From: Pseudomonadota bacterium
GTDB taxonomy: Bacteria; Bdellovibrionota; FAC87; UBA2466
DNA: 21,645 nucleotides
Assembly (NCBI GenBank): GCA_043767805.1
Contig: JAYUGC010000175.1
Coordinates: 1 to 21,645, forward strand
Direction of reading: 5' to 3'
Shown: in pieces, positions 4,053 through 21,556 of the stretch
Numbering within the stretch: the stretch's first letter is position 1
Layout: every line of letters begins with the position of its first letter
Notes under the pieces: generated by a model
Told to the model about the DNA's origin: nothing
The model's input: only the letters and a program-made list of their open reading frames with translations
Database searches by the model: none
Translations under genes and position numbers: made by a program

Positions 4053-4066
4053 TTAGGAATACCAAA

Positions 4067-6625: not shown

Positions 6626-6641
6626 AGCAGAACCCGTGCCA
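6626..6641 (-). promoter_or_regulatory. sigma54 -24/-12 promoter for the cytochrome c operon
   Basis: Minus strand TGGCACGGGTTCTGCT; GG-N10-GC spacing. Confidence 0.8.
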
Positions 6642-6693
6642 AGGAATTTAGGCGGGGCTCAGGCTCACCACTGGCTTAAAAAGCGGGGTGCGC

Positions 6694-6708
6694 GGGCCAT
6701 TTCGTCCC
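6694..6708. promoter_or_regulatory. Putative enhancer (UAS) palindrome, single clear copy
   Basis: GGGCCATTTCGTCCC matches the GGGACA-N3-TGTCCC family. Only a weak half-site lies 20 bp downstream. Confidence 0.55.
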
Positions 6709-6797
6709 GCGAGTTTGCTTTCTGTCGTGGTCTGAGCTTCCGTCGCGGCGTCGCCTGGCTTGCCAACTCGAAGGGCAAAACCGAGTGCCGTGAATGC

Positions 6798-6813
6798 TGG
6801 CACGTCACGTGCT
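6798..6813 (+). promoter_or_regulatory. sigma54 -24/-12 promoter for the NtrC-family regulator
   Basis: TGGCACGTCACGTGCT; GG-N10-GC. Confidence 0.75.
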
Positions 6814-6872
6814 CATTAGAGAAGGAGAGCTCCAGTTCAGGCTGTAAAACATGGGCAGAGGCAAGGAAGCAT

Positions 6873-6907
6873 GGGACACTATGTCCCGCGTTAGGTCAAA
6901 AAGGCCC
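6873..6907. promoter_or_regulatory. Tandem UAS-type palindromes in the regulator's leader (possible autoregulatory operator)
   Basis: Perfect GGGACACTATGTCCC (6873-6887) plus AGGTCAAAAAGGCCC (6893-6907), 20-bp offset. Confidence 0.7.
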
Positions 6908-6925
6908 ATTGAAAGGTAAAGACGG

Positions 6926-8380
6926 ATGAAAACCACTAAGGGCCATGTAGTCGTCGCGGATGATGATAGGGAAATGCGAGGACTCATTACGGATTTCCTT
7001 ACGACCGATGGCTACCAAGTCTCGGCGTTTCCCTCCGCCGTCGAGGCCCTGAAGGCCCTTCGGCCCGGAGGAGGCTTGGAAGCCGGGCAGGGCACCGATG
7101 TCGACGTCATCGTCTCCGACCTTCGCATGGCCCAGATGGACGGAATGCAGTTTCTCAAAACCATCAAGGCCGAGCGCCCGGACATTCCGGTGGTTTTAGT
7201 TACCGCCTTCGGAAGTATCGACACCGCCATCGAGGCGATGCGAAACGGCGCCTATCACTACGTGGTGAAGCCGTTCAAGTTGGCTGAAATGAGCGTGACC
7301 GTGGAGCACGCCCTGGAGCGTCGGCAACTAACTCGCGACAATCAGATCCTTCGCCGCGAAGTAAAAAAGAAATACGGCGTCTCGGGGCTTCTTGGAAAAA
7401 GCACGGCGATGCAATCCGTTTTCGATTTGATCGGGCGAGTCGCCACCTCTACCGCGAACGTGCTCATTAACGGGGAAAGCGGCACGGGAAAAGAAATGGT
7501 GGCCCGCGCGATACACAGCTCCGGTCCTCGGGCCAAGCAGCCGTTCATTGCCATCAACTGCACCGCCATTCCCGAGACTCTTCTGGAGTCCGAGCTTTTT
7601 GGGCATGCGAAGGGCTCCTTCACCGGAGCCACCAGCCGCAAGAAAGGACTCATTGAGGAAGCCAACGGAGGAACACTCTTTCTGGACGAGATCGGTGACA
7701 TGAGCCCGCCCCTCCAGGCCAAACTCCTGAGAGTTTTGCAAGAGCGCAAGATTCGTCCGGTGGGCGACAATCACTTTTATGACGTCGACGTGAGAGTGGT
7801 CTCGGCGACTCATAAGGATCTCAAGGCCGCCATCCGAGACGAGCGTTTTCGCGAAGATCTCTTTTACCGGCTGAGCGTGATTCCCATCGTCATTCCACCT
7901 CTGCGTGAGCGTCCGGAGGACATTCCGCTTTTGGCCGAGCATTTTCTGGAAAAATACTCGGCCGCGAACGCCGTTCCCGGCGGAAAGCGAATCACCGGCC
8001 TTACCAAAGGGGCGCTTTCCAAGCTGATGAGCCTTCGTTGGAAAGGCAACGTACGCGAGCTCGAAAACGTCATGGAACGAGCGGTGGTGCTTTGCCCGCA
8101 AACGATCATCGACGTCTCCGACATTCCCGATCCGCAATCGGCCGGTCCCGACGAGGCGATGCGAGTGGTTACGGGTGATTTTCCGACGGTGGCCCAGCTC
8201 GAAGAGCGTTACATTCGCCTGGTCTTGGAAAAGACGGCGGGTCGTAAGGATAAGGCTTCCCAGATTCTCGGCATCCATCGCCGCACGCTGTACCGCAAGG
8301 AACGAGATTACGGGTGGGTGACCGAAGACGCGGAGATGGAAGGCGGCACGGAACCGAAAGACGAGGTCTCCAAGCGTTAG
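6926..8380 (+). CDS. NtrC/AtoC-family sigma54-dependent response regulator (receiver - AAA+ - Fis HTH)
   Basis: Receiver VADDD…IVSDLRM…KPF; Walker A GESGTGKE; ESELFGHAKGSFTGA; Walker B LFLDEIG; FREDLFYRL; GNVRELEN; HTH ASQILGIHRRTLYRK. Confidence 0.97.
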   Translation: MKTTKGHVVVADDDREMRGLITDFLTTDGYQVSAFPSAVEALKALRPGGGLEAGQGTDVDVIVSDLRMAQMDGMQFLKTIKAERPDIPVVLVTAFGSIDTAIEAMRNGAYHYVVKPFKLAEMSVTVEHALERRQLTRDNQILRREVKKKYGVSGLLGKSTAMQSVFDLIGRVATSTANVLINGESGTGKEMVARAIHSSGPRAKQPFIAINCTAIPETLLESELFGHAKGSFTGATSRKKGLIEEANGGTLFLDEIGDMSPPLQAKLLRVLQERKIRPVGDNHFYDVDVRVVSATHKDLKAAIRDERFREDLFYRLSVIPIVIPPLRERPEDIPLLAEHFLEKYSAANAVPGGKRITGLTKGALSKLMSLRWKGNVRELENVMERAVVLCPQTIIDVSDIPDPQSAGPDEAMRVVTGDFPTVAQLEERYIRLVLEKTAGRKDKASQILGIHRRTLYRKERDYGWVTEDAEMEGGTEPKDEVSKR

Positions 8381-9486
8381 GCTTTCGGTACGCGCACGGT
8401 GAAAGTGGTGCCAGCCCCTTGGGGTAATTTCACGCCGATGGATCCCTGCCACCCGCGCACGATCTGATCGCAAATGGGTAAGCCCAGGCCCGTTCCGACT
8501 TCGGGCGCTTTGGTCGTGAAGAAGGGTTTGAAGATCTCGTCGAGATGCGGCTCGGGGATGCCACAGCCGGTGTCGCTCACGTCCATTTCCCAGTGATCGT
8601 CTTTAAGGCGAGCTTCGATCGTCAAAACATGGTTGCGTGTGCGTCCCTGCTCGATTTCGGACTCGATGGCTTGGATGGCATTGAGCAGGAGATTGAGGGC
8701 GACCTGCTCGAATAGAGTAGGTTCCGCGAGGATGGCCACCTCCTCACCCAGCCGGTTCTCTAACCGAATGCCGTGCTGGGCCAGCTGCGGGGCAAGTAAG
8801 TCGAGGACCTTGTCGAAAATCAGTTTGGGACGAACCGCGGAGAGCGTATCGGTCTTCGTGCCCCGGGCCAAATGCAAGAGGCTGTACATCAGCCGGGCGA
8901 TGCGATCGATTTGATTGACGACGATATCGAGATTTTTGCGGGCCGGTTCGTTCTCTTTCATCAAAAGCGCCAGGTACTCGGCCCGGCCGCGAATGACCCC
9001 GAGGGGATTGCCAATCTCGTGAGCGAGGCCGGCGGAGATTAGCCCCAAAGAGGCCAGGCGATCTTGATGGAGAAGCTGGGCTTCCATCGCTTTTTTTTCC
9101 GTGATGTCGACGGCAATTCCCATGTAGCCCACCAGTTGCCCCGCATCGTTTCGAAAGGGCGTGATGGTGAGAAAGACGGGAACCTCGTGCCCGTCCTTCG
9201 CGCGGTTGACCAGCTCGCCCTTCCAGTAGCCCACTTTCGGATCGGCGATTTGCCTCCACATCTTGCGGTAAAAGACTTCGTCTTGATGCGGGGAGCGAAG
9301 GAGAGCGGGGGTAGCGCCTATGGCCTCCTGCGCGCTGTAGCCGTAAACCCTCTGCCAGGCGCGGTTTACATAGTGAAGCCGTCCGAGCAAGTCGGTGAGC
9401 ATGACCGTATCGTTCGAATCATCCACGCAGCGGTGAAAGACCGAAGGGTCGTCGACCAAGGAGGGAATGAAAGGGGGAACCGGCAT
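8377..9486 (-). CDS. Cytoplasmic PAS-domain sensor histidine kinase (NtrB-like); start uncertain (9486 or 9498)
   Basis: PAS/PAC ([13 protein letters not shown]…[12 protein letters not shown]), H-box [12 protein letters not shown]-box [26 protein letters not shown]. Convergent with the regulator, with overlapping stop codons. Confidence 0.93.
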
Positions 9487-9498
9487 TAGGCTCTTCAT

Positions 9499-9514
9499 TG
9501 CAAAGCCACAGCCA
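9499..9514 (-). promoter_or_regulatory. sigma54 -24/-12 promoter for the PAS kinase
   Basis: Minus strand TGGCTGTGGCTTTGCA; GG-N10-GC. Confidence 0.7.
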
Positions 9515-9534
9515 GCCTCGGGCAGCCTGGGCGC

Positions 9535-9569
9535 GGGCCCAAATGTCAGACCGTAGGCCAAAATGTCCC
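9535..9569. promoter_or_regulatory. Tandem UAS palindromes
   Basis: GGGCCCAAATGTCAG (9535-9549) plus AGGCCAAAATGTCCC (9555-9569), 20-bp offset. Confidence 0.7.
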
Positions 9570-9599
9570 CTCGCCTGCCGGGGGCTGCCCTCGCGGGGG

Positions 9600-9615
9600 T
9601 GGCATGGTCGCTGCA
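9600..9615 (+). promoter_or_regulatory. sigma54 -24/-12 promoter for the MBL hydrolase
   Basis: TGGCATGGTCGCTGCA; GG-N10-GC. Confidence 0.75.
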
Positions 9616-9627
9616 ACTCTCCTGAGG

Positions 9628-10986
9628 ATGCGACTACAATTTTTGGGCGCCACCGGAACGGTGACCGGATCGAAATACCTCGTCGAAAAGGATGAGGTGA
9701 GAATCCTGGTCGACTGTGGCCTCTTTCAGGGAGAGAAAAACCTTCGTTTGCAGAACCGGGATGAGTTCCCCGTCCCACCCGGAGATATTCAGACCGTCCT
9801 TCTCACGCACGCTCACCTCGATCACTCAGGCTATCTGCCGCTTCTAGTCCGAAACGGATTTCGGGGCGAAGTTTATGCGACTCCGGCCACCGAAGCGTTT
9901 TGCCGCATTCTGCTTCCCGACAGCGGGCGGCTGCAAGAAGAGGAAGCCCACTACGCCAATCGCGCCGGCTATTCAAAACACCACCCGGCTCGTCCTCTCT
10001 ATACGTACGATGACGCCGTGAACTGCCTTACTGCTTTCGATCCCGTGCCCTTCGGAAAATCCCTGGGCCTGGGAGGCGGGCTGCAGTTTCATTTCGAGCG
10101 GGCCGGCCATATTCTCGGCGCGTCGATGGTCATGCTCAAAGCGAACGATAAGAAACTACTTTTCACCGGCGATCTCGGCCGGCCGGGAGATCCGGTGATT
10201 TTCCCGCCGAGTCCCATCGAGTCCGCCGACTATCTCGTCTTGGAGTCCACTTACGGAGACCGGCTGCACAAACCAGTGGACTGGCTGAGCGAGCTCGAGG
10301 CGGTTTTGCTCAGAACCATACTGAGGAGGGGAGTGGTCGTGATTCCGGCGTTCTCCGTCGGTAGATCGCAGACCTTGCTCTACGGTCTCTACCGTCTTAG
10401 GGAGGCAAAGCGCATCCCGAACGTTCCCATTTTTCTGGATAGCCCTATGTCGGAGGAGGCGGTGCGAATATTTCGCCGTTTTCAGGGCGAGCATCGCTTG
10501 AGCCCCGAAGAGTGCGCGGGAACTTACGACGTCGCCAAGTACGTCCGATCTTCCGAGGAGTCCAAAGCACTGAATAATCGCAAAGGGCCCATGATCATCG
10601 TCTCGGCTTCCGGCATGGTCACGGGCGGACGCGTGCTTCACCACATCAAAGAGCGGGCGCCCAATCCGGACAACACGATTCTCCTTACCGGTTTTCAAGC
10701 CAATGGGACACGGGGGGCGGCGCTCCTTGGCGGGACGCGCACCGTAAAGATTCACGGGGAACTAGTCGCGGTGAACGCGGAGATTGCTTCGCTGGACAAT
10801 CTGTCGGCGCACGCCGATCAAGGAGAAATCTTAAGCTGGCTGTCTCATTTCAAGCGTCCTCCCGAAACGACCTTCATTACCCACGGCGAGCCGGAGGCCG
10901 CCAGCGCACTGGCGAGCGCCATCGAAAAAAAACTGGGATGGAAGTGCCACGTGCCGCACTACCTGGAAAAGGTGGATTTGAAATAG
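9628..10986 (+). CDS. MBL-fold metallo-hydrolase, beta-CASP family (putative ribonuclease)
   Basis: MRLQFLGATGTVTGS, LVDCGLFQG, THAHLDHSG, AGHILG, FTGDLG, ESTYGDR, SASGM, LSAHAD, HGE. Confidence 0.95.
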   Translation: MRLQFLGATGTVTGSKYLVEKDEVRILVDCGLFQGEKNLRLQNRDEFPVPPGDIQTVLLTHAHLDHSGYLPLLVRNGFRGEVYATPATEAFCRILLPDSGRLQEEEAHYANRAGYSKHHPARPLYTYDDAVNCLTAFDPVPFGKSLGLGGGLQFHFERAGHILGASMVMLKANDKKLLFTGDLGRPGDPVIFPPSPIESADYLVLESTYGDRLHKPVDWLSELEAVLLRTILRRGVVVIPAFSVGRSQTLLYGLYRLREAKRIPNVPIFLDSPMSEEAVRIFRRFQGEHRLSPEECAGTYDVAKYVRSSEESKALNNRKGPMIIVSASGMVTGGRVLHHIKERAPNPDNTILLTGFQANGTRGAALLGGTRTVKIHGELVAVNAEIASLDNLSAHADQGEILSWLSHFKRPPETTFITHGEPEAASALASAIEKKLGWKCHVPHYLEKVDLK

Positions 10987-10987
10987 C

Positions 10988-11983
10988 TCAGGGGGCAAAG
11001 ACTTGATTGGTGAGCGGCCGCCCCTGCTCGAACTCGGTTGCGTTTTGGAGCGTCGTGTCGGCTATGTTGTCGAGCGCTTCCTGAGTGAGGAAACCCTGAT
11101 GAGAGGTGATCAAGACGTTTGGAAACGTCAGCAGCCTGGCCAGGACGTCGTCCTGCAGAACCTGACCCGACATGTCCTTGAAGAAGACGCTTTCCTCTTC
11201 TTCGTAAACGTCGAGGCCGGCCCCTCCGAGCTTCCCCTGTTTGAGGTGCTCGACGAGGGCTTTGGTGTCGATGAGAGCTCCGCGGCCTGTATTGATGAGA
11301 AGGGCGCCGGGCCGCATGCGAGAGAGGGCTTGGTCGTCGATAAGATGACGAGTCTGAGGACCAAGCGGAAGATGTAAGGTGATGATCTGAGATTTTTCGT
11401 AAAGGGCTTGAAGGGAAACGTACTCGGCACCGAGGGCCGCTACTTCCTGGCGAGGAAAAGGATCGTGTGCGAGCACTCTGCAGCCAAAGCCCGTCAGGAT
11501 GCGGACCATCACCGTGCCGATTTGACCCGTGCCAACGACGCCCACGGTTTTGCCGTGCATGTCGAACCCGACCAGGCCATCGAGCGAAAAATTCAGCTCC
11601 CGCACGCGGGAATAAGCGCGGTGGATCTTTCGATTCAAAGTCAGCATCAGGGCGATGGCATGCTCGGCCACCGCGTAGGGCGAATAGCGAGGCACTCTTA
11701 CGACGGTAAGCCCCAGGGTTTTCGCCGTGTTGAGATCGACGTGATTGAACCCTGCCGATCGCAAGGCGATGAGCCGGACGCCTTCCTCTTTGAGCTGAAT
11801 CAAGGTGTCCGCACTCAAATTGTCGTTGGCGAAAGCGCACACTCCTTCATGTCCCCGGGCTAGGGTGGCCGTTTCGCGGGTCAGCCGGGGCTCAAGAAAG
11901 GTGAGCTGGTGCTCATATTTTTTATTGAGTCTTTCCAGGCATTCCCGCTCGAAGGAATGGGTATCAAAGACGGCTAGTTTCAT
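10988..11983 (-). CDS. ldhA: D-lactate dehydrogenase / D-2-hydroxyacid dehydrogenase
   Basis: ALRSAGFNHVD, VRVPRYSPYAVAEH, Rossmann GVVGTGQIG, INTGRG, LDVYEEE, RLLTFPNVLITSHQGFLT - close to LdhA signatures. Confidence 0.9.
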   Translation of the reverse strand: MKLAVFDTHSFERECLERLNKKYEHQLTFLEPRLTRETATLARGHEGVCAFANDNLSADTLIQLKEEGVRLIALRSAGFNHVDLNTAKTLGLTVVRVPRYSPYAVAEHAIALMLTLNRKIHRAYSRVRELNFSLDGLVGFDMHGKTVGVVGTGQIGTVMVRILTGFGCRVLAHDPFPRQEVAALGAEYVSLQALYEKSQIITLHLPLGPQTRHLIDDQALSRMRPGALLINTGRGALIDTKALVEHLKQGKLGGAGLDVYEEEESVFFKDMSGQVLQDDVLARLLTFPNVLITSHQGFLTQEALDNIADTTLQNATEFEQGRPLTNQVFAP

Positions 11984-12009
11984 GGCTGCTTTCCAAATGG
12001 GGTTAGGAA

Positions 12010-12032
12010 GCGGGGGCCTCGAGGGCCCCCGC
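12010..12032. other. GC-rich stem-loop between the secreted-protein gene and ldhA
   Basis: GCGGGGGCC-TCGAG-GGCCCCCGC, perfect 9-bp stem, no long U-tract. Confidence 0.6.
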
Positions 12033-12043
12033 GCTTTCCGATG

Positions 12044-12802
12044 TTAGTTTAGGGGGGAAGTGGGATCCATCGGAAACTTCTTGTGAGGCTCGATGAGCCG
12101 ATTGACCGCTTTACCGTTCATGGAGCGGGCGTGGAGAAGATAGGCATGCTGACCCAGAATCAGGGAGAGAGCCCTTTCCTGGCGAAACGGATAGTAGCCT
12201 GCGGTACAAACGCCCGAAGAAGAAGGTGTGTATTGAATGACGGGCATCACGACGACGACGTCGGTGTAGATTTCTACCCTGATGTCCAAGAGGCTCAAGC
12301 AATCGTTCGGAAAGATGCCGGAGACGACTACGTCATGCCCAAAGGGCATTCTGGGTTTCAGCGTCACGTCACTCACCGGAGCATAAGGAGCGTCGTCGGT
12401 CCCGGGGCCGGTGTTGGTGGCGCGCAAGATAGGCAGCGTGCCCAGAGACGATTGGCTCGTACCGTCCCAAATCTCGTAGTCGCCCGCGGGAAGCACGGGG
12501 AGGTTGGTCATCTGCTCGAAAGGCATCTTGAGGGGCCAGCAATGAGTGCCGGTGTACTGATACGCCTTTTGCACCACGGTAATGCGCCGGTGAACCGGAT
12601 CCACTTTGACGTCTTGATCGGCCAGCTGAAAACAGAGATCGGAGAACTGCCCGGTCACCATGAATTGAGGCACGTCGTTGCTATCAAACCCCACCGGGAC
12701 GTAAGCCTTGGCGAGGGCAACCGAGACGAGCGCCGGGTCGGTACCTTGCGCCGTTGCGAAAGAAGCGACCATCCAGATGCCCAACGTGAGAAAGCGAATC
12801 AT
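12044..12802 (-). CDS. Secreted hypothetical protein, two-repeat Cys-pair family (paralogue 1)
   Basis: GGGAG RBS, signal peptide, YVPVGFDSND, DDAPYAPV and YLLHARSMNGKAVN, shared with 16765-17472. Confidence 0.85.
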   Translation of the reverse strand: MIRFLTLGIWMVASFATAQGTDPALVSVALAKAYVPVGFDSNDVPQFMVTGQFSDLCFQLADQDVKVDPVHRRITVVQKAYQYTGTHCWPLKMPFEQMTNLPVLPAGDYEIWDGTSQSSLGTLPILRATNTGPGTDDAPYAPVSDVTLKPRMPFGHDVVVSGIFPNDCLSLLDIRVEIYTDVVVVMPVIQYTPSSSGVCTAGYYPFRQERALSLILGQHAYLLHARSMNGKAVNRLIEPHKKFPMDPTSPLN

Positions 12803-12847
12803 AAATCTCCCTACTGAAATCGAATTTAGGAAACGTTGACGCGCTTG

Positions 12848-12863
12848 TGCAATCGCCGGACCA
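12848..12863 (-). promoter_or_regulatory. sigma54 -24/-12 promoter for the secreted protein-ldhA unit
   Basis: Minus strand TGGTCCGGCGATTGCA; GG-N10-GC. Confidence 0.72.
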
Positions 12864-12893
12864 CAAAGGTCGTGTGGCGTGAAGAGAAAGTGT

Positions 12894-12928
12894 GAGGCAA
12901 TTTGACCCGAGATCGGACTTTTCGTCCC
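12894..12928. promoter_or_regulatory. Tandem UAS palindromes
   Basis: GAGGCAATTTGACCC (12894-12908) plus CGGACTTTTCGTCCC (12914-12928), 20-bp offset. Confidence 0.7.
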
Positions 12929-12970
12929 AGGGAGGCAAGTCGGTCAGCTTTATAGCGGTGGAATAGTTTC

Positions 12971-12986
12971 GGGCCCGGCCCTTGCA
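12971..12986 (+). promoter_or_regulatory. sigma54 -24/-12 promoter for the CBS-USP-eRF1-like operon
   Basis: GGGCCCGGCCCTTGCA; GG-N10-GC with TTGCA. Confidence 0.65.
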
Positions 12987-13013
12987 ACAGTTAGGTGGAA
13001 AGGAATGCCACGT

Positions 13014-13421
13014 ATGAGCCCGCCAATCTCCGATTTCATGACGACGATCCCCGTGCAAGTCGATAAGAGCGCTTCCCTCGAGACGGCTCGGCGCCTGCTC
13101 GAACGTTACGGTATCCGGCATTTGCCGGTGATGGCGGACGGAAAACTAGTCGGGGTCGTCACCGAACGGGAAATGAACGTAGCCCTCGCTGTCGCAAGAT
13201 CCCATAGTCTCGAAGTGACGGTAGAGACCGCGATGCAGTCCCCGGCTTTCCAGGTCGGCAAGAACGTACCCGTGGGCGATGTGGCCGAGCGAATGGCCAA
13301 AGAGAAGTTCGGCTGCGCCATCGTCGTGCATGAGGAAAAGATCTGCGGCATCTTTACGACTACCGATGCCCTTTTTCTACTGACCAAATATTGCAAGAAA
13401 GAAGGAAAAGACCATGTCTAA
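13014..13421 (+). CDS. CBS domain pair protein (alternative start 13005)
   Basis: IRHLPVMADGKLVGVVTERE and FGCAIVVHEEKICGIFTTTD. AAGGA RBS lies 9 nt before ATG 13014. Confidence 0.9.
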   Translation: MSPPISDFMTTIPVQVDKSASLETARRLLERYGIRHLPVMADGKLVGVVTEREMNVALAVARSHSLEVTVETAMQSPAFQVGKNVPVGDVAERMAKEKFGCAIVVHEEKICGIFTTTDALFLLTKYCKKEGKDHV

Positions 13422-14394
13422 ATCTCGGCTCATTTGGCCCATAAACCCTTTTGCCGACGAGAAAACTTATTTCAAGCATGCCTTGAAGGTCATCGGCGAG
13501 TTTGCGGCGGCGTCCGGCCTCCAGGTCGAGCCGGTGTATGTCTTATCCCCTCCCGGAATAATCCTGCCGACGGGTTACGTGCTGGACAAAATGGAACCGG
13601 CGGAACCGAAAGTGAAAGCGGCTTGGGAAGCGCTTACCAAAGGGAGCAAGTACGCGGGCTCCTTCCTTCCACCGACGGTTCTGACCGATGCTTCTCTGTC
13701 TAAGTATGGAATGTCACGCGCGGTCGTGGACTATGCGAAGACTGTCGGCGCGGAAGCCTTGGCGGTGGCGACGCATGGACGGAAAGGGGCCGCGCGTTTC
13801 GTGATGGGAAGCTTTGCGGAAAGTCTCCTTCATGCGGCGGATTTGCCCCTCTTCGTTTTCAATCCCTGCGCGGAAAAAGCGGGCCGCACTCGCAAGATTC
13901 TCTTTCCCGTGGAGCTACCGCTGAGTCCGACGACACCGGTGGATCAAGTCATTCAGTTCGCCAAAGCGAGCAGGGCGAAGCTCGTTTTCTTTCATAAGGT
14001 GGATTATCTGAACCAGTTCACGGCGGAGCCTCTATTTCAGATGCCAACGTATCGAGGCTATTTGGAACAAGATCTAACGGCTCGGCGGGATGAGCTCAGC
14101 AAGTTGTTGAGCCGCTCGCGCTCGTGCGGGGTAGTGGCGGAAGCGATTTTGGACCAAGGGACCGCCTACGTCCCCGACGGAATTCTGGCCACCGCCAGAA
14201 AGCAGGGCGTGGATCTCATCGCCATGGTGTCAGGCGCGGGACGAGTTCAGTCCGCGCTTCTGGGTAGCGTGACCCGACAGGTGCTCCGGACCGCCAAGCA
14301 ACCCGTCTGGGTGGTGCATCCCGAGCCAGTCGCGGCCCGCCAAACCATTTTTCCTAAAATCGAGGTCGTAACCTCAAGAAAGGCTCGTCAGTAG
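13414..14394 (+). CDS. Tandem-domain universal stress protein
   Basis: ATHGRKGAARFVMGSFAESLL; RKILFPVEL; DLIAMVS…LLGSVTRQVLRTAKQPVWVV. Overlaps the CBS gene by 8 bp. Confidence 0.9.
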   Translation: MSKSRLIWPINPFADEKTYFKHALKVIGEFAAASGLQVEPVYVLSPPGIILPTGYVLDKMEPAEPKVKAAWEALTKGSKYAGSFLPPTVLTDASLSKYGMSRAVVDYAKTVGAEALAVATHGRKGAARFVMGSFAESLLHAADLPLFVFNPCAEKAGRTRKILFPVELPLSPTTPVDQVIQFAKASRAKLVFFHKVDYLNQFTAEPLFQMPTYRGYLEQDLTARRDELSKLLSRSRSCGVVAEAILDQGTAYVPDGILATARKQGVDLIAMVSGAGRVQSALLGSVTRQVLRTAKQPVWVVHPEPVAARQTIFPKIEVVTSRKARQ

Positions 14395-14395
14395 T

Positions 14396-14767
14396 ATGAA
14401 CAATTACATCGTTTTCTTGGACCAGGAGCACGCCAAGCTGTTTGAGCTGCTTCCCGACGGAGTGGAGGCTCACAAGCTGCAACGCCAAGAAATCCGGCAT
14501 CACAGCGGCGTGGAGAAATCGCAAACGGCGCACAAAGACGGATCAAAGTTTTTTCACGAGGTAGCGACCCATCTCGGCAAGGCCGATCAGGTGCTTCTTG
14601 TCGGCCCGGGGCTTGCGAAGAAATCGTTTCAGACGCATTTGGAGAAACATCATCATGCCGAGCTTTTCAAGAAGGTAATCGGCGTTCAGACCGTGGATCA
14701 TCCGACGGATGAGCAGCTCGTAGCGCTCGCTAAGAAATTCTTCAAAGCTCATCTCCGTTTCGAGTAG
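14396..14767 (+). CDS. eRF1-domain/host-attachment-like small protein ('translational machinery protein' type)
   Basis: VFLDQEHAKLF…FFHEVATHL…VLLVGPGLAK…VIGVQTVDHPTDEQLVALAKKFF pattern; His-rich. Confidence 0.75.
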   Translation: MNNYIVFLDQEHAKLFELLPDGVEAHKLQRQEIRHHSGVEKSQTAHKDGSKFFHEVATHLGKADQVLLVGPGLAKKSFQTHLEKHHHAELFKKVIGVQTVDHPTDEQLVALAKKFFKAHLRFE

Positions 14768-15021: not shown

Positions 15022-15028
15022 AGAAGCG

Positions 15029-15059
15029 GAGGCGGTGGGAGTCTGGCTCCGCCGCCTTC
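15029..15059. terminator. Imperfect stem-loop between convergent genes
   Basis: GAGGCGGTGGGAG-TCTGG-CTCCGCCGCCTTC; no clear U-tract. Confidence 0.4.
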
Positions 15060-15364
15060 ACTCCGGATCGGGAGACTCGCTCAGATCCAAGAGTGTGCGT
15101 TTTCCGTCCTTGAGCTGAGTGGCGCCTCGGATCGTCTCGATGGAGGCCGTCTCGGGATTCACGGAGACGTCCACGACATACACCATGAGTCCGCCTGAAG
15201 TGAGCGAGAGTATCTTGGTCGTCTTGTCTTTCTTTTTGCGGAACGCGCCCGATTTATTGACTGACTTCCTCGTGCGCGCGTTCAACCGGTTTGAGCTCTT
15301 CGACCGAAGTAATTTCTCCTTGAACGAGGCTGCAGAAGAAGAGGGGAAGGAGTAGGCGGCGCAT
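15058..15364 (-). pseudogene. Disrupted small secreted protein (stop/frameshift near 15240-15256)
   Basis: GGAG RBS, then ATG 15364 MRRLLLPLFFCSLVQG… which stops after 36 codons at TAA 15254-15256. Coding-like sequence (KILSLTSGGLMVYVVDVSVNPETASIETIRG) continues in another frame to 15058. It has its own sigma54 promoter. Confidence 0.5.
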
Positions 15365-15400
15365 GGGTATCTCCGTCGTTGAGGGGCTAGAGAGATCGAT

Positions 15401-15416
15401 TGCAAGAGCGACGCCA
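15401..15416 (-). promoter_or_regulatory. sigma54 -24/-12 promoter
   Basis: Minus strand TGGCGTCGCTCTTGCA; GG-N10-GC. Confidence 0.75.
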
Positions 15417-15445
15417 GGGTTTGAGCTTCGAGGTCCGGCCCTCGA

Positions 15446-15483
15446 GGGACATTTCATCCCCCGCTGAAGGGACAATTTCACCG
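15446..15483. promoter_or_regulatory. Tandem UAS palindromes
   Basis: GGGACATTTCATCCC (15446-15460) plus GGGACAATTTCACCG (15469-15483), 23-bp offset. Confidence 0.65.
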
Positions 15484-15513
15484 ATCGGACCTCAAGTTCC
15501 ACGCTGGCGGCCA

Positions 15514-15529
15514 TGGCATGACGCCTGCA
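15514..15529 (+). promoter_or_regulatory. sigma54 -24/-12 promoter for the second USP
   Basis: TGGCATGACGCCTGCA; GG-N10-GC. Confidence 0.75.
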
Positions 15530-15560
15530 ACTAGGTTTGACCAAAGCGAAAGGTGAAACC

Positions 15561-16565
15561 ATGACGGATCGAGTGAAGCCAGCTTCCAAATGGATTTGGG
15601 CAGTAGATGCCTTTCATGAGCAGCCCGTGAGTCAGTGGAGAGCGGTGGAGGCCCTGCGTTCCTCACTCGGCGGAGTCCAGCCGGCCATTCAGCCCGTCTC
15701 TTGCCTGGCTCTGGGACAATTCAATCCCGGGCTCGGAGTTTTCGAGGAGAAATGGCATCGACTAGCGGCTCACGCTGAGAAAAAATTGGAATCGCTCCTA
15801 AAACAGGGTGAGCCAAAGGGCCTACTGATGCCACGGCTGCTGCGGCAAGAAGATCCCGTGATCTCTTTCGGCGTGGATGCCCTGGTTAGATTCGCGTTGG
15901 AAGAGGGCGCCGAGGGAATCGTGCTGACTTCTCACGGCCGCAAGGGCCCGGCGCGGTGGGTGCTTGGTAGCTTCGCCGAGACGCTCGTGCTGCGCTCTCC
16001 TCTGCCGGTACTCGTGGTAAATCCGCGCGCGGCTCGCCCGAAACGGATTAAGACCATCGTTTTCCCCACTGACTTCAGCGCCGGCTCTCGGGAGGCCTTC
16101 GGCCGCACCTTGGCGATCGCTTCCCGGATAAAAGCCAAGATTGTCTTGTTCCACAAAGTTTCAACGCTCTACCCTGAAGTCGGCAATGCCACCGCTTCCG
16201 GAAAACGAATCGATCCCGTTCGGGAGAGAAGGGATGAGCTGAAGGCCGAGGGAGCCGCCTGGATCGCGTTCGCCGCCGGGATGGGCGTCAAAGTGAGGGT
16301 CATACTCGACCTCAAAACGGGGCGAGTCCTTCCCGCTCTGATGAGAGTCATCGACAGCGTGGGAACTGACAGCATGGTAGCGATGGCGTCAACGAGCGGT
16401 CTTTTTAAATCCCTGATGCTAGGCAGTCTCTCGCGTCAGGTGCTGCGCGAGGCGCGCCGGCCAGTGCTTATCTTTCACGCTGAACAAGAGTCTTTGACCG
16501 AAGTCTTCCTGGCCCAGCTAAACCGTTTCGCTTTCGCTTACGCCGCGAATCCCGTCGTCCGATAA
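15561..16565 (+). CDS. Tandem-domain universal stress protein (paralogue of 13414-14394)
   Basis: AAGGTG RBS; WIWAVDAF; TSHGRKGPARWVLGSFAETLV; KTIVFPTDFS; MLGSLSRQVLREARRPVLIF. Confidence 0.9.
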   Translation: MTDRVKPASKWIWAVDAFHEQPVSQWRAVEALRSSLGGVQPAIQPVSCLALGQFNPGLGVFEEKWHRLAAHAEKKLESLLKQGEPKGLLMPRLLRQEDPVISFGVDALVRFALEEGAEGIVLTSHGRKGPARWVLGSFAETLVLRSPLPVLVVNPRAARPKRIKTIVFPTDFSAGSREAFGRTLAIASRIKAKIVLFHKVSTLYPEVGNATASGKRIDPVRERRDELKAEGAAWIAFAAGMGVKVRVILDLKTGRVLPALMRVIDSVGTDSMVAMASTSGLFKSLMLGSLSRQVLREARRPVLIFHAEQESLTEVFLAQLNRFAFAYAANPVVR

Positions 16566-16598
16566 GCCATTTCTCCTCTATCGTCGATATCCCAAAGT

Positions 16599-16634
16599 GA
16601 GTCTCCTTGCCCCAAACATGGGTCAGTTTGTCTC
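16599..16634. promoter_or_regulatory. Tandem UAS palindromes (degenerate)
   Basis: GAGTCTCCTTGCCCC (16599-16613) plus GGGTCAGTTTGTCTC (16620-16634), 21-bp offset. Confidence 0.55.
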
Positions 16635-16675
16635 TCTTTTCCTTCTCCGAATTTTCTTTCTCTCATGAAACGAGT

Positions 16676-16691
16676 TGGATCGCTGATTGCA
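16676..16691 (+). promoter_or_regulatory. sigma54 -24/-12 promoter
   Basis: TGGATCGCTGATTGCA; GG-N10-GC. Confidence 0.65.
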
Positions 16692-16764
16692 CAGCGTTTC
16701 GGCATACGAATCTTTCTTGCTTTGCCAAAAGCAGGCGAGAAAAGTCATTACATGGGAGTTCTTA

Positions 16765-17472
16765 ATGCGTAGTACCAAGTGGATTCTTTCATTGCTCTGT
16801 TTCGCCAGACTGGCCGCGGGGGCGGTAAGCGGAGCGGTTCCGGTGCCCAATATTTCCCTCTTCGTGCCTCAAGGATTCGACGATAACGACGAGGTTGTGG
16901 TCACTCTGGATGGATACTTGCCCAATGCCTGCTATCAGCTCACGGAAGCGGTAGTCACCCGCGATCTGACCAACCACCGAATTCTCGTTCAGCAGATGGC
17001 CTACGTGAGCCCCGGGCCGTGCGTGCAGGTGCTGAGCCCGTACGTCAATACCGTGCGGATCGGTCAGCTTCCGGTCGGCAGCTACATGATAGCGAGCGCT
17101 TCGGGAAGTTTGCGCAAAACTTTGAACATTACACGCGCGCCCATTCCCACCAAGGACGACTACTTGTACGCGCCCATCGATTCCGCGATGGTCGCGCCGT
17201 ACCAAGGGGGTTACGTGGCCGTCTTGACCGGACGGTATACGAATTCCTGTCTTCGCATGCGCGCCATTCCGGTAAGAGCCACAGGTGACACGGTTCAAGT
17301 GTTTCCCATCATGGAGTTTCGCAAAGCGGACGAGGCTGGAAGGCCTTGTCGCAAAGTGGAGCTTCCGTTTCGCGTGACCCAAAGACTCCCCGCGCTTTCT
17401 CGGGGACGCTACCTCCTGCACGTTCGGAGCCTGAACGGCCGGTCCGCTAATACGGTCTTCTCGGTAGAGTAG
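16765..17472 (+). CDS. Secreted hypothetical protein, two-repeat Cys-pair family (paralogue 2)
   Basis: GGGAG RBS before ATG 16765, signal peptide, FVPQGFDDND, DDYLYAPID, YLLHVRSLNGRSAN. Confidence 0.85.
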   Translation: MRSTKWILSLLCFARLAAGAVSGAVPVPNISLFVPQGFDDNDEVVVTLDGYLPNACYQLTEAVVTRDLTNHRILVQQMAYVSPGPCVQVLSPYVNTVRIGQLPVGSYMIASASGSLRKTLNITRAPIPTKDDYLYAPIDSAMVAPYQGGYVAVLTGRYTNSCLRMRAIPVRATGDTVQVFPIMEFRKADEAGRPCRKVELPFRVTQRLPALSRGRYLLHVRSLNGRSANTVFSVE

Positions 17473-17487
17473 ATCGCCATCCTACTG

Positions 17488-17520
17488 GCCCACTCGGCTT
17501 TTTGCCGGGTGGGCTTTTTT
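17488..17520 (+). terminator. Rho-independent terminator
   Basis: GCCCACTCGGC-TTTTT-GCCGGGTGGGC followed by TTTTTT. Confidence 0.85.
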
Positions 17521-17607
17521 AATACCTCGCCTACCTCTCAAACTGATCCGGCTCTCCCCACTGAAGGAAGACGCAAGCCATCACTCAAGTGAGCCAAACG
17601 TGGTTAT

Positions 17608-18012
17608 TTATGCCTTTGCTTTGAACGGGACGGAGGGGAGGGGGAGCAGGGCCTGCTCTATTTGCTCTTTTAGGTAGCTCAACGGAAAAGGCTTGATGAG
17701 ATAGGCGGCTGCGTTGAGTCGCGTGGCCTCCTGCCGTTCCTCGGGACTTCCTTCCCCCGTAAACAGCAGAATGGGCAGATTTGGGTGCTCACCGTGGGCG
17801 ACGATGAGAAAATTGAAACCGTTCATGGGGCGCAAGGTGGTGTGGCAGACGATGGCACGGGGAACCTCAGGGCTTTCCAAGGCCAACAACGCATCGACGG
17901 CCGAGCTGAAGCCGCGAACCTCATACCCTTGAGTCACCAGAAAATCCTGGAGAAGCGATCGCATCGGAGCTTCATCGTCGATGACCCAGATCATGTTTTT
18001 AGTAGGGGGCAC
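17608..18012 (-). CDS. Single-domain response regulator with His at the phospho-acceptor position (pseudo-receiver)
   Basis: WVIDDE, IVCHTTLRPMNG (D->H at residue 57), LFTG, YLIKPF. Confidence 0.85.
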   Translation of the reverse strand: MPPTKNMIWVIDDEAPMRSLLQDFLVTQGYEVRGFSSAVDALLALESPEVPRAIVCHTTLRPMNGFNFLIVAHGEHPNLPILLFTGEGSPEERQEATRLNAAAYLIKPFPLSYLKEQIEQALLPLPSVPFKAKA

Positions 18013-18054
18013 TCTGACTCACTCCGGTCCTTGGTTACTCCCTGGATCTAGAAG

Positions 18055-18070
18055 AGCAAGGGGCGTGCCA
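18055..18070 (-). promoter_or_regulatory. sigma54 -24/-12 promoter (consensus match)
   Basis: Minus strand TGGCACGCCCCTTGCT. Confidence 0.88.
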
Positions 18071-18100
18071 AAAAAATTAACCCGTAGCCAGCGAAGGCTC

Positions 18101-18135
18101 GGGAAGGATTGTCTGACTGTGGGACTTATTGTCCG
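18101..18135. promoter_or_regulatory. Tandem UAS palindromes
   Basis: GGGAAGGATTGTCTG (18101-18115) plus GGGACTTATTGTCCG (18121-18135), 20-bp offset. Confidence 0.7.
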
Positions 18136-18218
18136 CCAGGTGGTAGAACCCCACGATACTCTTTATGCAGACTCTTGATTGGTGCCTGGCAAAGGCCCAC
18201 GTTAAGAGCGAGGTAACG

Positions 18219-19778
18219 ATGAACCGCGCTTGGACCGAAGGCACTTTTCAGGGACTATTGGACTCCGCTCCGGATGCGATGGTCGTCGTGCGAGCGGATG
18301 GCAATATCGTCTTAGTCAATAGTCGGGCTGAGCACATCTTCGGTTACACTCGCGGCGAACTTCTGGGCCAAAAAATAGAGATCCTGCTGCCCGCGCGCTT
18401 TCAAAAAAGTCATATTCCGCATCGGGACGGCTATTTCAAGCTGCCGCGGGTCCGTCCCATGGGCGAAGGACTCGATCTTTACGGATGTCACAAGGACGGT
18501 CACGAGTTTCCGATCGAGATCAGCCTGAGCCCTCTACAGACCGCCGAAGGCCTTCTGGTGACGAGCGCGATTAGAGATACGACTGAGCACCGAAAGGCGG
18601 AGGCCGAGCTGAAAAGGGCCCGGGAAGCGGCGGACTCGGCGAATCGAATCAAGAGTGAGTTTCTCGCCAATATGAGCCACGAGATCCGAACTCCGCTCGC
18701 CGGCATTCTCGGTTATCTCGAAATGCTCGAGCTCTATTGCAAAACCGACGAGGATCGCAAGGACTACATCGCCAAAGCCAAGCGAAACGCGAATAATCTG
18801 ACGGAGCTCATCAACGATATCTTGGACCTTTCGAAGGTCGAGGCGGGAGCTCTGCAAGTCGAGCAACTTAAGTTCTCTCTCTCCGTCGAGATCGAAGGCG
18901 TTCTTTCACTTTTGCAGGGCCAAGCGGAAGAGAAGTCGATTGTCTTGGAATCGCTCGTGGAGCGTCCGATTCCTTTAAATATAGTGTCGGACCCGAAACG
19001 CTTTCGGCAAATTCTCATCAACGTTCTGGGAAATGCCCTTAAATTCACGCAGGCGGGCAGAGTCACGCTCCGGGTTCGGTATGTGAAAGCAACGGGTAAC
19101 AGACCCGTCCTCGAGCTCAGTGTTACCGACTCGGGATGTGGCATTGCCGCGGAAGCGCACACTAAGCTTTTCGAGCCTTTCGTGCAGGCCGACAGTTCCA
19201 CGACGAGAAAATACGGAGGCACCGGATTAGGCCTCGCGCTGTCTCGAAATCTGGCACGGGCCTTGGGAGGCGACTTGGTTTTGACTGAGAGCGTTCCTGG
19301 TAAGGGCAGTACGTTCACGATTACCATCGACCCTGGTAACTGCGATTCGTTAGGAGAAGGTTGCGAACGCGTGGGCCGGGCGTTGCCGGCGGCCAATAGC
19401 GACTCCCTTCGCATCGACGGAGTGCGTATCCTGCTAGCCGAAGACAACACGGACAACGAGCTGCTCATTTCTCAATTTTTGACCAGGGCGGGAGGCAAAG
19501 TCTCCATCGTGCGCAATGGGCTGGAGGCCGTTGAAATGGCGCTTAGCGAGAGGTTCGACGTCGTCTTAATGGATATTCAGATGCCTGTGATGGATGGGTA
19601 TGCGGCTTCCAGGAAGTTAAGGAAAGAGAGCTTCGCGAGCCCCATCTTCGCGTTGACGGCGCATGCGATGATCGAAGAGCGCGAGAAGTGCCGAGAGGCA
19701 GGCTGTGACGAGATCTTTACCAAGCCTTTGGATTTCGCGGTCCTGCTCGGCACCATTCAGAAATATTTGAAGCACTAA
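18219..19778 (+). CDS. PAS-domain hybrid histidine kinase/response regulator (FixL-like PAS)
   Basis: [19 protein letters not shown]…[17 protein letters not shown]…[44 protein letters not shown]; receiver LLAEDN…VLMDIQMP…TKP. Confidence 0.95.
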
Positions 19779-19781
19779 GCC

Positions 19782-20243
19782 CTACTGGGGAACCTCGTGG
19801 CTTGTCGCCTTTTCCCAGAGCGGGCGGCCGGACAGCTCCCGTAGAATCGCTTTGTGCTTTCCGCGCAGGATTTCGCGGGCAATCAGCGTCGGTTTGCCCC
19901 CGAGCCGAATGGTGACTCCGACCACTACGACCGGCTCGCCTTTGGTGAAGAGTAAGTCACGCTCCAGCACGAACCAACGGGGCCCGACGTGCACGTCGAT
20001 GTTGCCGCGTTCTCCTTGAAGCTTGAGAGAGATGCCGGGCTCCATCCCCGCAAGCGGGGTGATGTCTTCGGTGCGAAGCACTTTGCCTTCGATGCGTGCC
20101 TCCGATCCCGCCTGGTAAAGATGGTGATAAGCGCCGGAAGTGCCCCAACTGCCGCTGGTGGCGGCGATGGTCTCGGCGTGGCTCAGGGGAAGGTACGCGA
20201 CGACCCAGAGCAGCAGGATTAGGGTAATGGCATGGGTTCGCAT
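19782..20243 (-). CDS. Exported protein, OB-fold-like (VHVGPxWF motif, MamS/MamX-domain-like)
   Basis: GGAGAG RBS, signal peptide ending SHA-E, IEGKV…VHVGPRWF…GEPVVVVG…LIAREI…LRELSGRPLW. Confidence 0.7.
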   Translation of the reverse strand: MRTHAITLILLLWVVAYLPLSHAETIAATSGSWGTSGAYHHLYQAGSEARIEGKVLRTEDITPLAGMEPGISLKLQGERGNIDVHVGPRWFVLERDLLFTKGEPVVVVGVTIRLGGKPTLIAREILRGKHKAILRELSGRPLWEKATSHEVPQ

Positions 20244-20273
20244 GGAAGTCTCTCCGTTGAATAGGTCGGGATT

Positions 20274-20738
20274 CTATTTTCGAAATTTGGCTACTTTGGT
20301 CCGCTTCGAAGTGAGGGGCTGCGGCCAGAGGTCTCTGAGCTCCTTGGGAAGGCACTGAACGACGTCTTCAATCTCCCCCGCGCTTACTTTTTGAGACAGA
20401 AAGACGAAAACGTCCTGAACCATCATTTCGATTTGCTCGTCGGAAAGTTCCTTGAATTGCGGCGAGAGTTTCGCGAGAAAGTCATCCGCGTACCGGCTCT
20501 TCTCCCTCTTTGCCGCTGGTCTCCAACCTTCATAAAAAAGTCCCTTGATGATCAGAGGAAACTGAGAAGCCAGATCGGCGCCTTCCGCGGGCGGCAGATG
20601 CTCGCGTAGCTCCTGCAAGGTGAACCTGAGGGCCCGGCAGGCATAAGCCTCATCCTCGGTATTCATCTCCTTCATCAGCTCGCCAAGCCATTGCCGCGTG
20701 GTTTCCAGACTGGGTTTAAACTCGTTCAACGTGGTCAT
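20274..20738 (-). CDS. DUF2267-family protein
   Basis: AGGAG RBS before ATG 20738; TRQWLGEL…AYACRALRFTLQELREHLP…DLASQFPLIIKGLFYEGW…VSAGEIEDVVQCLPKELRDLWP. Confidence 0.85.
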   Translation of the reverse strand: MTTLNEFKPSLETTRQWLGELMKEMNTEDEAYACRALRFTLQELREHLPPAEGADLASQFPLIIKGLFYEGWRPAAKREKSRYADDFLAKLSPQFKELSDEQIEMMVQDVFVFLSQKVSAGEIEDVVQCLPKELRDLWPQPLTSKRTKVAKFRK

Positions 20739-20769
20739 AATCGCTCCTGGGTTAAATAGATTTCCTGGA

Positions 20770-21288
20770 TCAGTGATCGCGCCAATCGTCTTCCTCATCC
20801 TCGCTGGGCGCCTCGGCCTGCAAAGACTGTGAAAAATCCATTTCTCTCGGCTGCGCGATCTTCCGCCAGGTCTCAAACGGTACGCAAACCGCGTCGCCGC
20901 GGGCTCCCCCGGAGAAAGAAATGTCTTTGGTGATCTTGAGACTCGGATCCATCCAAATATCGATACCCGGCCAGTGGCGCAGGGGAGGAATCGCCCCCAC
21001 TTCACAGTCCGAGAAGAAGAACGCGGCTTCGTCTTCCGAAAGAAGCCTTGCGCATAGGGAAGGCGCGAGCCGGCGGACCTTTTCGAGAGACACTCGCCGG
21101 CAGGCGGGAAGCACGAGCAGCAAAATGGCATTATCGATCTCTACGGCAACGGTTTTGGCGACTTGGCGACCGCTGATGTGCTCGGCCTCCGCGATTTCTT
21201 GGGCAGTGAAGGCCGGCCGGTGATGAAGCTCGCGAAAGGGGGCTCCAGCCGAGCTCAGCGTTTCTTTGACCCAGCGTAATGTGCTCAT
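20770..21288 (-). CDS. YbaK/EbsC (prolyl-tRNA editing-like) family protein
   Basis: AAGG RBS before ATG 21288; HRPAFTAQEIA…VAKTV…LLVLPA…FSDCEVGAIPPL…MDPSL. Confidence 0.88.
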   Translation of the reverse strand: MSTLRWVKETLSSAGAPFRELHHRPAFTAQEIAEAEHISGRQVAKTVAVEIDNAILLLVLPACRRVSLEKVRRLAPSLCARLLSEDEAAFFFSDCEVGAIPPLRHWPGIDIWMDPSLKITKDISFSGGARGDAVCVPFETWRKIAQPREMDFSQSLQAEAPSEDEEDDWRDH

Positions 21289-21417
21289 GGGCGACCTTTC
21301 CAGAAGAAATCGCCGGAGGCGAGGCCAGTTCGATTCCGACGCATTTAGGCGGCAGCGAATTTGCACTCCGCACCGGTTCCAACGATCTTGACGGGTGATC
21401 CTTTCACGCAAACGTTT

Positions 21418-21433
21418 AGCAGGATGCGTGCCA
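21418..21433 (-). promoter_or_regulatory. sigma54 -24/-12 promoter for the YbaK-DUF2267-exported protein operon
   Basis: Minus strand TGGCACGCATCCTGCT. Confidence 0.8.
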
Positions 21434-21474
21434 CGTCGAAGAAAGAGAGAATTTCCGGCCCGGGAGGTCTTGGG

Positions 21475-21509
21475 GGGAATTTTAGTCCCTTAGTGGGCCA
21501 CTCTGTCGC
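21475..21509. promoter_or_regulatory. Tandem UAS palindromes
   Basis: GGGAATTTTAGTCCC (21475-21489) plus GGGCCACTCTGTCGC (21495-21509), 20-bp offset. Confidence 0.7.
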
Positions 21510-21540
21510 TTCTTTACCTAGTTCCCAACCGAATTTCGTT

Positions 21541-21556
21541 TGGCATGAATTCTGCT
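21541..21556 (+). promoter_or_regulatory. sigma54 -24/-12 promoter
   Basis: TGGCATGAATTCTGCT; GG-N10-GC. Confidence 0.8.

Follow-up and report, generated by a model that had tools for sequence, protein, structure and literature searches.

The 21,645 base pair (bp) window analysed here is the complete contig C175 (GenBank JAYUGC010000175.1) from the 4.5 Mb genome of a member of the Bdellovibrionota (assembly GCA_043767805.1). It contains the gene of an NtrC-family enhancer-binding protein (hereafter the activator), 12 sigma-54-type promoter elements (GG-N10-GC) upstream of genes, with counterparts kept before orthologous genes, and a 15 bp palindromic site, GGGACAnnnTGTCCC, mostly paired at 20–23 bp. 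An initial annotation of this DNA reported that the distances between sites and promoters are quantised in turns of the DNA helix; the observation is real, is reproduced across the phylum and was probably rightly read as face-of-the-helix control. The features concerned are given below, where promoters are named by their upstream edge, site pairs by their first base, and distances run from site centres to the −26 base of the promoter (ORF, open reading frame).

6626–6641, − strand: sigma-54 promoter ahead of ORF 5326–6489; site centre 60 bp away
6694–6708, no strand: site for promoter 6641, with only a half-site partner near 6714–6728
6798–6813, + strand: sigma-54 promoter of the activator gene; counterpart in 27 orthologs
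6873–6907, no strand: site pair 3′ of the activator promoter (6873–6887, a perfect palindrome, and 6893–6907)
6926–8380, + strand: activator, with receiver (PF00072), sigma-54 AAA+ (PF00158) and Fis-type helix-turn-helix (PF02954) domains; putative binder of the palindrome
8377–9486, − strand: PAS histidine kinase; PAS closest to the redox-sensor PAS of 3ewk, NifL (2gj3) and Aer
9499–9514, − strand: sigma-54 promoter of PAS kinase 8377–9486; 28 and 48 bp
9535–9569, no strand: site pair 9535–9549 and 9555–9569, common to promoters 9514 and 9600
9600–9615, + strand: sigma-54 promoter of beta-CASP metallo-hydrolase 9628–10986; 38 and 58 bp
12848–12863, − strand: sigma-54 promoter of ORF 12044–12802; 38 and 58 bp
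12894–12928, no strand: site pair 12894–12908 and 12914–12928, common to promoters 12863 and 12971
12971–12986, + strand: sigma-54 promoter of a run of CBS, tandem Usp and 123-amino-acid ORFs (13005–14767); 50 and 70 bp
15401–15416, − strand: sigma-54 promoter of ORF 15058–15366; 37 and 60 bp
15446–15483, no strand: site pair 15446–15460 and 15469–15483, 23 bp apart, common to promoters 15416 and 15514
15514–15529, + strand: sigma-54 promoter of tandem Usp gene 15561–16565; 38 and 61 bp
16599–16634, no strand: site pair, weak 16599–16613 and strong 16620–16634
16676–16691, + strand: sigma-54 promoter of ORF 16765–17472; 49 and 70 bp
18055–18070, − strand: sigma-54 promoter of single receiver protein 17608–18012; 38 and 58 bp
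18101–18135, no strand: site pair, 18101–18115 and 18121–18135
18219–19778, + strand: hybrid PAS kinase; PAS resembles the FixL heme PAS
21418–21433, − strand: sigma-54 promoter ahead of tRNA-edit (20770–21288) and DUF2267 genes; 49 and 69 bp
21475–21509, no strand: site pair 21475–21489 and 21495–21509, common to promoters 21433 and 21541
21541–21556, + strand: sigma-54 promoter of an ORF running past the contig end; 39 and 59 bp

A consensus scan for the −24/−12 element (cut-off at least 8/11 matches) gave 17 window hits, 12 of which are the promoters of the initial annotation, the remaining five (6534, 10070, 13084, 15949 and 21350) being unused there. All 11 of its coordinate pairs proved to be a −24/−12 element and a palindrome edge at the position given, and since all these edges share one palindrome register the choice of edge was not free. 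The resulting edge-to-edge gaps of 21, 31, 31, 43, 30, 31, 42, 31, 42, 32 and 53 bp are non-random at 10.5 bp (Rayleigh test, R = 0.929, p = 4e-6, n = 11); the observed R was matched by 0 of 20,000 uniform draws (15–60) and by 0 of 3,000 free-period draws (8–13 bp), and with one gap per intergenic region (7 regions) R was at least 0.897 (p at most 0.0011). Copying of regulatory blocks as the cause of this phasing is ruled out by the low identity of the six 29–31 bp spacers, which share 4–13 of 29 bases pairwise and are therefore not copies of each other. Within pairs, the sites are spaced by 20, 20, 20, 23, 21, 20 and 20 bp, the 6694 site standing apart with its half-site partner.

Measured from the nearest site centre to the −26 base, the distances are 28, 38, 38, 50, 37, 38, 49, 38, 49, 39 and 60 bp (for promoters 9514, 9600, 12863, 12971, 15416, 15514, 16676, 18070, 21433, 21541 and 6641, respectively), with a mode of 38 bp, and over the window and its relatives they form a lattice at about 38, 48, 59, 69, 80 and 91 bp. 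With start sites placed by convention relative to the −24/−12 elements, the nearest sites are centred between −54 and −86 and the more distant ones between −74 and −107; pair centre and promoter centre are 46–78 bp apart. The distances are short, as had been claimed, in so far as the nearest centres lie at −54 to −86; their shortness was exaggerated because edge gaps were compared with start-site distances (‘80–150 bp’). Four window pairs each sit in phase between two divergent promoters, a geometry that would let one activator assembly serve both; the test of back-to-back promoter spacing, given below, was negative.

For a comparison beyond the window, activator orthologs were sought in 41 near relatives and in 401 sampled genomes of the phylum (137 of the 401 match the C-terminal part), and 99 stretches (1.79 Mb) were taken around the best orthologs and a few weaker homologs. 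For that C-terminal part the nearest named loci bear the labels Bdellovibrionales and Oligoflexia, with one of the closest four labelled otherwise. Promoter and site matrices were trained on the window only and applied with fixed thresholds at four settings. Among 211 held-out promoters, there were 83 promoter–site pairs at 24–128 bp upstream, 21 downstream and five at 150–300 bp; column-shuffled palindromes gave a mean of 3.1 pairs (maximum 55) versus the 83 real ones. The best period was 10.5 bp, and phasing was significant at all four settings. As paired sites are in phase by construction, the test was repeated with one site per promoter: the strongest sites of 93 promoters in 44 genomes gave R = 0.478 (p = 1.8e-10, best period 10.6–10.85 bp) and a phase of 6.2 versus 6.9 in the window, with 75 of the 93 within a quarter turn of the window’s phase, and one value per genome gave a median p of 7e-5. 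Phasing was sharper in the window’s own family (R = 0.668, n = 36). The consensus of 133 strong held-out sites is GRGACAAWTTGTCYC, and where such a site has a partner (42 cases) the two are 19–21 bp apart in 26. The promoters of homologous Usp and CBS genes, and of paralogous genes without a known family, stand at differing whole turns (for Usp promoters across relatives, 38, 49, 50, 60, 68, 69, 70, 77, 79 and 82 bp): the distances of orthologous targets have moved by whole turns. Whole-turn quantisation is thus borne out, beating chance in the window and recurring in held-out genomes.

The activator’s own promoter, 6798, had been set aside as an exception (90 bp), having been mis-paired with the 6694 site, which lies 97 bp upstream and off the lattice, while the downstream pair 6873/6893 went uncounted; this ‘exception’ is the most informative part of the data. 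The pair’s centres lie 82 and 102 bp past the −26 base of 6798 (+56 and +76 from the inferred start), and 6873, the top-scoring site of the window, sits between promoter and activator start codon. Forty-two of 77 activator orthologs (at least 53% identity) have a site within 110 bp of the start codon, versus 0 of 7 other activators, and the motif is therefore tied to this activator, whose recognition helix is nearly invariant among the orthologs. In the 27 orthologs with a sigma-54 promoter before the site, the first site lies 59–61, 68–71, 78–83, 89–92 or 101 bp past the −26 base, and these downstream distances (including a weak third site at 69 for entry L020, with an alternative reading of 82) are phased at 10.5 bp (R = 0.789, p = 1.7e-9) with a phase of 6.84, versus 6.87 for the upstream sites of the window. 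In six of the 27 leaders the pair could belong to an adjacent antisense promoter; phasing persists among the remaining 21 (R = 0.747), ruling out back-to-back inheritance as the source. Nor does common descent of a single spacing explain the lattice, as turn class is unclustered on a tree of 28 orthologs, switching 15 times (minimum possible 4, shuffled mean 15.8), and the lattice has therefore been rebuilt by repeated whole-turn jumps. The activator’s own promoter likely uses the leader pair as a downstream enhancer, because mere blocking would need no phase.

A second role for the leader pair is suggested by the motif TAnnnT at sigma-70 spacing (16–18 bp), which occurs in 10 of 42 leader pairs versus 2 of 154 target orientations, and in some lineages the pair is likely a repressor site as well. 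NtrC represses the sigma-70 promoter glnAp1, which overlaps its sites, and activates glnAp2; that layout would be mirrored here, with the sigma-54 promoter upstream of the sites. Tentatively, and at somewhat less than even odds, we propose that across the Bdellovibrionota the activator drives its own sigma-54 promoter from the leader pair on the same lattice, the pair also silencing an overlapping sigma-70 promoter. A further sigma-54-like element (6775–6790, − strand), its GG and GC one base too far apart, stands back to back with promoter 6798 at a distance of 90 bp from the centre of the 6873 site. An intact antisense promoter occupies this place in six relatives, and the element is possibly a decayed promoter.

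Whole-turn phasing itself is already in print and is not a new principle. For 61 natural LuxO enhancers at Vibrio qrr genes, loop lengths form clusters separated by ∼11 bp, with loops of ∼80–120 bp (tandem centre to promoter centre) and A/T oscillating at 10.6 bp (PMC4740811); phase dependence has been measured in a synthetic PspF system (PMC6710252); and for NtrC an overview gives helix-face dependence at Klebsiella pneumoniae nifLA and a lower limit of ∼70 bp from site to start (PMC7408454). The contrast with classical enhancers drawn in the initial annotation does not hold in this respect, as helical phasing is known for looping enhancers too. The present system resembles Vibrio qrr in its tandem NtrC-type activator sites, whole-turn clustering of loops and A/T oscillation, and NtrC at glnAp2/nifLA in its tandem enhancer and, for nifLA, face-of-the-helix dependence. 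It differs in that its loops are 46–78 bp by the measure used for qrr, that its regulon spans several operons, has pairs shared by divergent promoters and includes a downstream pair in phase, where qrr is one gene family, and that seven of the 11 nearest window site centres, at −54 to −65, are closer than the NtrC limit. Published accounts give 100–250 bp as the usual site distance in Clostridiales (PMC6615313).

Desulfovibrio vulgaris provides the most direct comparison. Its published sigma-54 regulome places most promoters within 100 nucleotides (nt) of a site, which again weakens the contrast with classical enhancers, and some sites 40–70 bp downstream (e.g. DVU1063; PMC4641369). We re-measured 57 promoters from the published tables, assuming listed positions to be first bases; excluded were the four promoters of non-coding RNAs, genes whose sites came with no listed promoter and, for two genes that have two promoters, the more distant one. 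The 38 nearest sites within 24–128 bp, which belong to many different activators, are phased (R = 0.515 at 10.5 bp, p = 2e-5, best period 11.0) and cluster near 61, 72, 83, 94 and 105 bp, and phasing extends to nine downstream sites (p = 0.003). The text of that paper does not mention this lattice and does not contain the word ‘helical’, and a search with the motif halves returned no such motif from its site tables (PMC4641369). Since D. vulgaris sites are phased as well, phasing is a general trait, and the present system stands out by its short distances and by the conservation of its downstream pair: the median nearest distance is 94 bp over 51 D. vulgaris promoters, unlike the 65 bp of these relatives and the 38 bp of the window, which stands at the short end, and no more than 50 bp separate the −26 base from the nearest site at 1 of 51, 32 of 93 and 10 of 11 promoters, respectively.

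The DNA between sites and promoters may itself contribute. A/T in 93 held-out spacers oscillates at 10.5–10.8 bp (p = 0.001), which fits an intrinsic bend in the spacer. A reading of activation without looping is not supported, given that the same lattice in relatives reaches ∼100 bp and that the A/T phasing of spacers suggests a short bend.

We hypothesize that the activator receives its phosphate from a kinase whose PAS domain is of the oxygen or redox type, that activator dimers on a site pair then build the AAA+ ring, and that this ring would reach the sigma-54 polymerase across an unusually short bend of 46–78 bp. DNA of this length would be too stiff for twisting, such that only whole-turn insertions or deletions survive and half-turn changes are lost because such short DNA resists twisting, while phased A/T, perhaps together with HU/IHF-family proteins, could ease the bend. 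A pair between divergent promoters might serve either one, and the leader pair, with the same lattice numbers, would be a downstream enhancer giving positive feedback at the activator’s promoter; in some relatives the leader pair overlaps a sigma-70-like promoter, which the bound activator may shut off. We consider it probable that the window pairs are phased short-range enhancers of the activator, usable from one helix face, with the leader pair as a downstream enhancer.

Several observations weigh against this interpretation. In the 12 spacers of the window itself A/T phasing is not significant (p = 0.11), phasing is looser outside the window’s family (R = 0.389, n = 57), and 18 of the 93 held-out promoters are off phase. 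Back-to-back promoter spacing in relatives, a measure that needs no site call, was not phased (n = 16, R = 0.156, p = 0.68), possibly because two errors add up, though the result counts as negative. Outside the window, this genome has sites at 13 of 290 promoters (p = 0.078), and phasing was just as strong in a far control (n = 7, p = 0.04). As related genomes are not independent, the p-values overstate the significance. At the threshold used, no sigma-54 promoter was called in 14 of the 42 site-bearing leaders, and the leader pair is therefore not always a downstream enhancer; the sigma-70 idea came from the first 18 leaders, the later 24 giving 4 of 24 (p = 0.003), and the window’s own leader pair is without the sigma-70 signature. 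Finally, the genome encodes 17 NtrC-type activators, and this one is assigned as the putative binder by phylogenetic footprinting only.

Alternatively, the upstream pairs might be phased enhancers but the leader pair only a repressor (by roadblock, trapped loop or sigma-70 blocking), with 6798 activated from the 6694 site or from solution. The leaders without a sigma-54 promoter, the enrichment of sigma-70-like hexamers in leader pairs and the presence of the 6694 site upstream of 6798 favour such a scheme, but neither a roadblock nor a sigma-70 block needs phase relative to the sigma-54 promoter, yet the leader distances are the sharpest phased set, with 15 whole-turn jumps; moreover the 97 bp of the 6694 site is off the lattice, and of 19 activator promoters in relatives a single one (L153) is preceded by a site at up to 135 bp. 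We regard pure repression from the leader as unlikely. We would give about the same small weight to ordinary protein-bent loops, in which the phase is set by an IHF/HU-type protein bound in the spacer (the arrangement of nifH and pspA) and the distances belong to the low end of the usual range. Four HU/IHF-family genes in the genome, the phased A/T and the similar lattice of D. vulgaris, some of whose promoters are reportedly IHF-dependent (title of PMC3897727), speak for it. Set against this, the IHF consensus is unenriched, with 3 of 105 spacers at 8/9 or better versus 4.3 in shuffled sequence and a window maximum of 7/9, and the two spacers of the 9535 pair, only 20–30 bp long, are 13–15% A/T.

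That a different regulator encoded in this genome binds the palindrome is a good deal less probable still. The 17 activators, similar sites by promoters adjoining other activator genes on contigs C131 and C172, and the 35 of 77 orthologs without a leader site would allow it; against it, throughout the phylum the site accompanies this ortholog, whose recognition helix is nearly invariant, and 77 loci of less closely related activators, almost all of them in other phyla, gave two promoter–site pairs among 74 promoters. Chance or selective motif calling might be argued from the training of the window matrices on sites of the initial annotation and from the negative back-to-back test, but period and phase recur in held-out genomes under fixed thresholds at four settings and the spacers are unrelated in sequence; this explanation is largely refuted and has next to no probability left. 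Phased enhancers with a downstream pair in the activator’s leader remain the reading we prefer.

The genes behind these promoters suggest what the activator may respond to. Of the 88 first genes behind held-out promoters, 34 were scanned, each a singleton or the representative of a cluster; among their products are a cytochrome c, a protein with a COX2 domain, a globin, two P-type ATPases, Hsp20, FtsH, multicopper oxidase and acetyl-CoA hydrolase, and 13 of the 34 matched no family. In the window’s hybrid kinase (18219–19778) a histidine aligns to that in the RSRHDSY stretch of FixL. The likely input to the regulon, whose members are Usp and CBS proteins, cytochromes and PAS kinases of FixL-like and NifL-like type, is low oxygen or redox, because the kinase PAS domains match those of FixL and of 3ewk, NifL and Aer. 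The activator’s AAA+ loop reads GSFTGA, and the protein stays below the curated NCBIfam cut-offs, with 464 against 714 bits for AtoC, 444 against 559 for NtrC and 402 against 760 for ZraR. Its palindrome may resemble the ZraR site.

By analogy, the closest system in function is NmpR of Myxococcus xanthus, with a different site and sensor type. NmpR (of NmpRSTU) is an NtrC-type activator with a paired 15 bp inverted repeat, GCGCA-N5-TGCGC, at a usual gap of 14–15 nt; it is autoregulated, its low-oxygen regulon includes CBS, Usp and P-type ATPase genes, and its sensor kinase NmpU is a protoglobin protein (PMC11841059). Shared with the present system are the NtrC-type activator, the paired 15 bp inverted repeats, autoregulation (proposed here), a hybrid kinase, an extra receiver protein, and low-oxygen-type targets (CBS, Usp, P-type ATPase, oxidase); unlike NmpRSTU, the site here is GGGACAnnnTGTCCC with a gap of ∼5 nt, and the sensors are PAS proteins. 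The NmpR site has no window matches at up to one mismatch, and both window kinases (the only ones considered here) carry PAS and no globin domain. A search for the NmpR-type site in GC-rich loci of other phyla gave scattered hits only, with no NmpR locus identified.

We found no published description of the motif, the regulon or the downstream arrangement, in a search that covered phasing, downstream enhancers, ZraR, Nla28 and Bdellovibrio regulons but scarcely any subscription papers; searches aimed at Bdellovibrio listed no paper on this low-oxygen regulator. The regulon supplies loops of graded natural length (∼46–110 bp), on either side of the promoter, that one and the same activator would bridge, and it points to a likely regulator of the low-oxygen response, together with its site, in a phylum of predatory bacteria. 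According to a 2020 review, all structures of these activators are without enhancer DNA (PMC7175178). The very short constructs suit reporters and cryo-electron microscopy, and the downstream autoregulatory lattice is the part of most experimental value. If the interpretation is true, loops of 46–57 bp (below the reported NtrC limit) together with the Desulfovibrio lattice would point to one general geometry of ring–polymerase docking, readable from genomes, and the leader arrangement would be a mirror-image glnAp1/p2 switch for a low-oxygen regulon.

Some further features of the genome and the window touch on these subjects. An exact joined site-and-promoter pattern gave 0 matches in the own genome; it was too strict because the sites are degenerate, and was replaced by matrices. 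Similar palindromes lie 50, 39, 60, 27, 71, 70 and 72 bp from sigma-54 promoters on other contigs (C131:9167–9224, C172:6423 and 8498, C143:19374, C59:2066, C112:6028 and C20:16298), two of which (C131 and C172) carry another activator gene; these may be further targets or sister motifs. Promoters 9514 and 9600 are the tightest divergent pair of the window, and their start sites placed by convention fall ∼2 nt before the ATG codons (9486 on the − strand, 9628 on the + strand; regions 9486–9488 and 9626–9628), such that the transcripts would be nearly leaderless. Before the hybrid kinase, TGGCA at 18187–18202 (+ strand) keeps lattice distances, 59 and 79 bp, to the 18101/18121 pair but has no −12 GC, and is a possible degenerate promoter. 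ORFs 12044–12802 and 16765–17472 are paralogous, with signal-peptide-like N-termini and no Pfam match, and they recur, often paired, in many ortholog loci and behind phased promoters. ORF 5326–6489 encodes a 387-amino-acid protein with a CxxCH motif that matched no Pfam or NCBIfam family and adjoins the activator in many relatives.

Elsewhere on the contig, a D-2-hydroxyacid dehydrogenase is encoded in the stretch from 5.3 kb onward. ORF 3174–4052, with no Pfam match, looks like a fusion of unrelated fragments, and the outer-membrane protein gene from 4067 is interrupted by a stop near 4166; the 3174–4190 region consists of pseudogenes or assembly errors. At the contig end (1–93), just past the stop of a SNF2 helicase gene, a 15 bp unit is repeated about six times.

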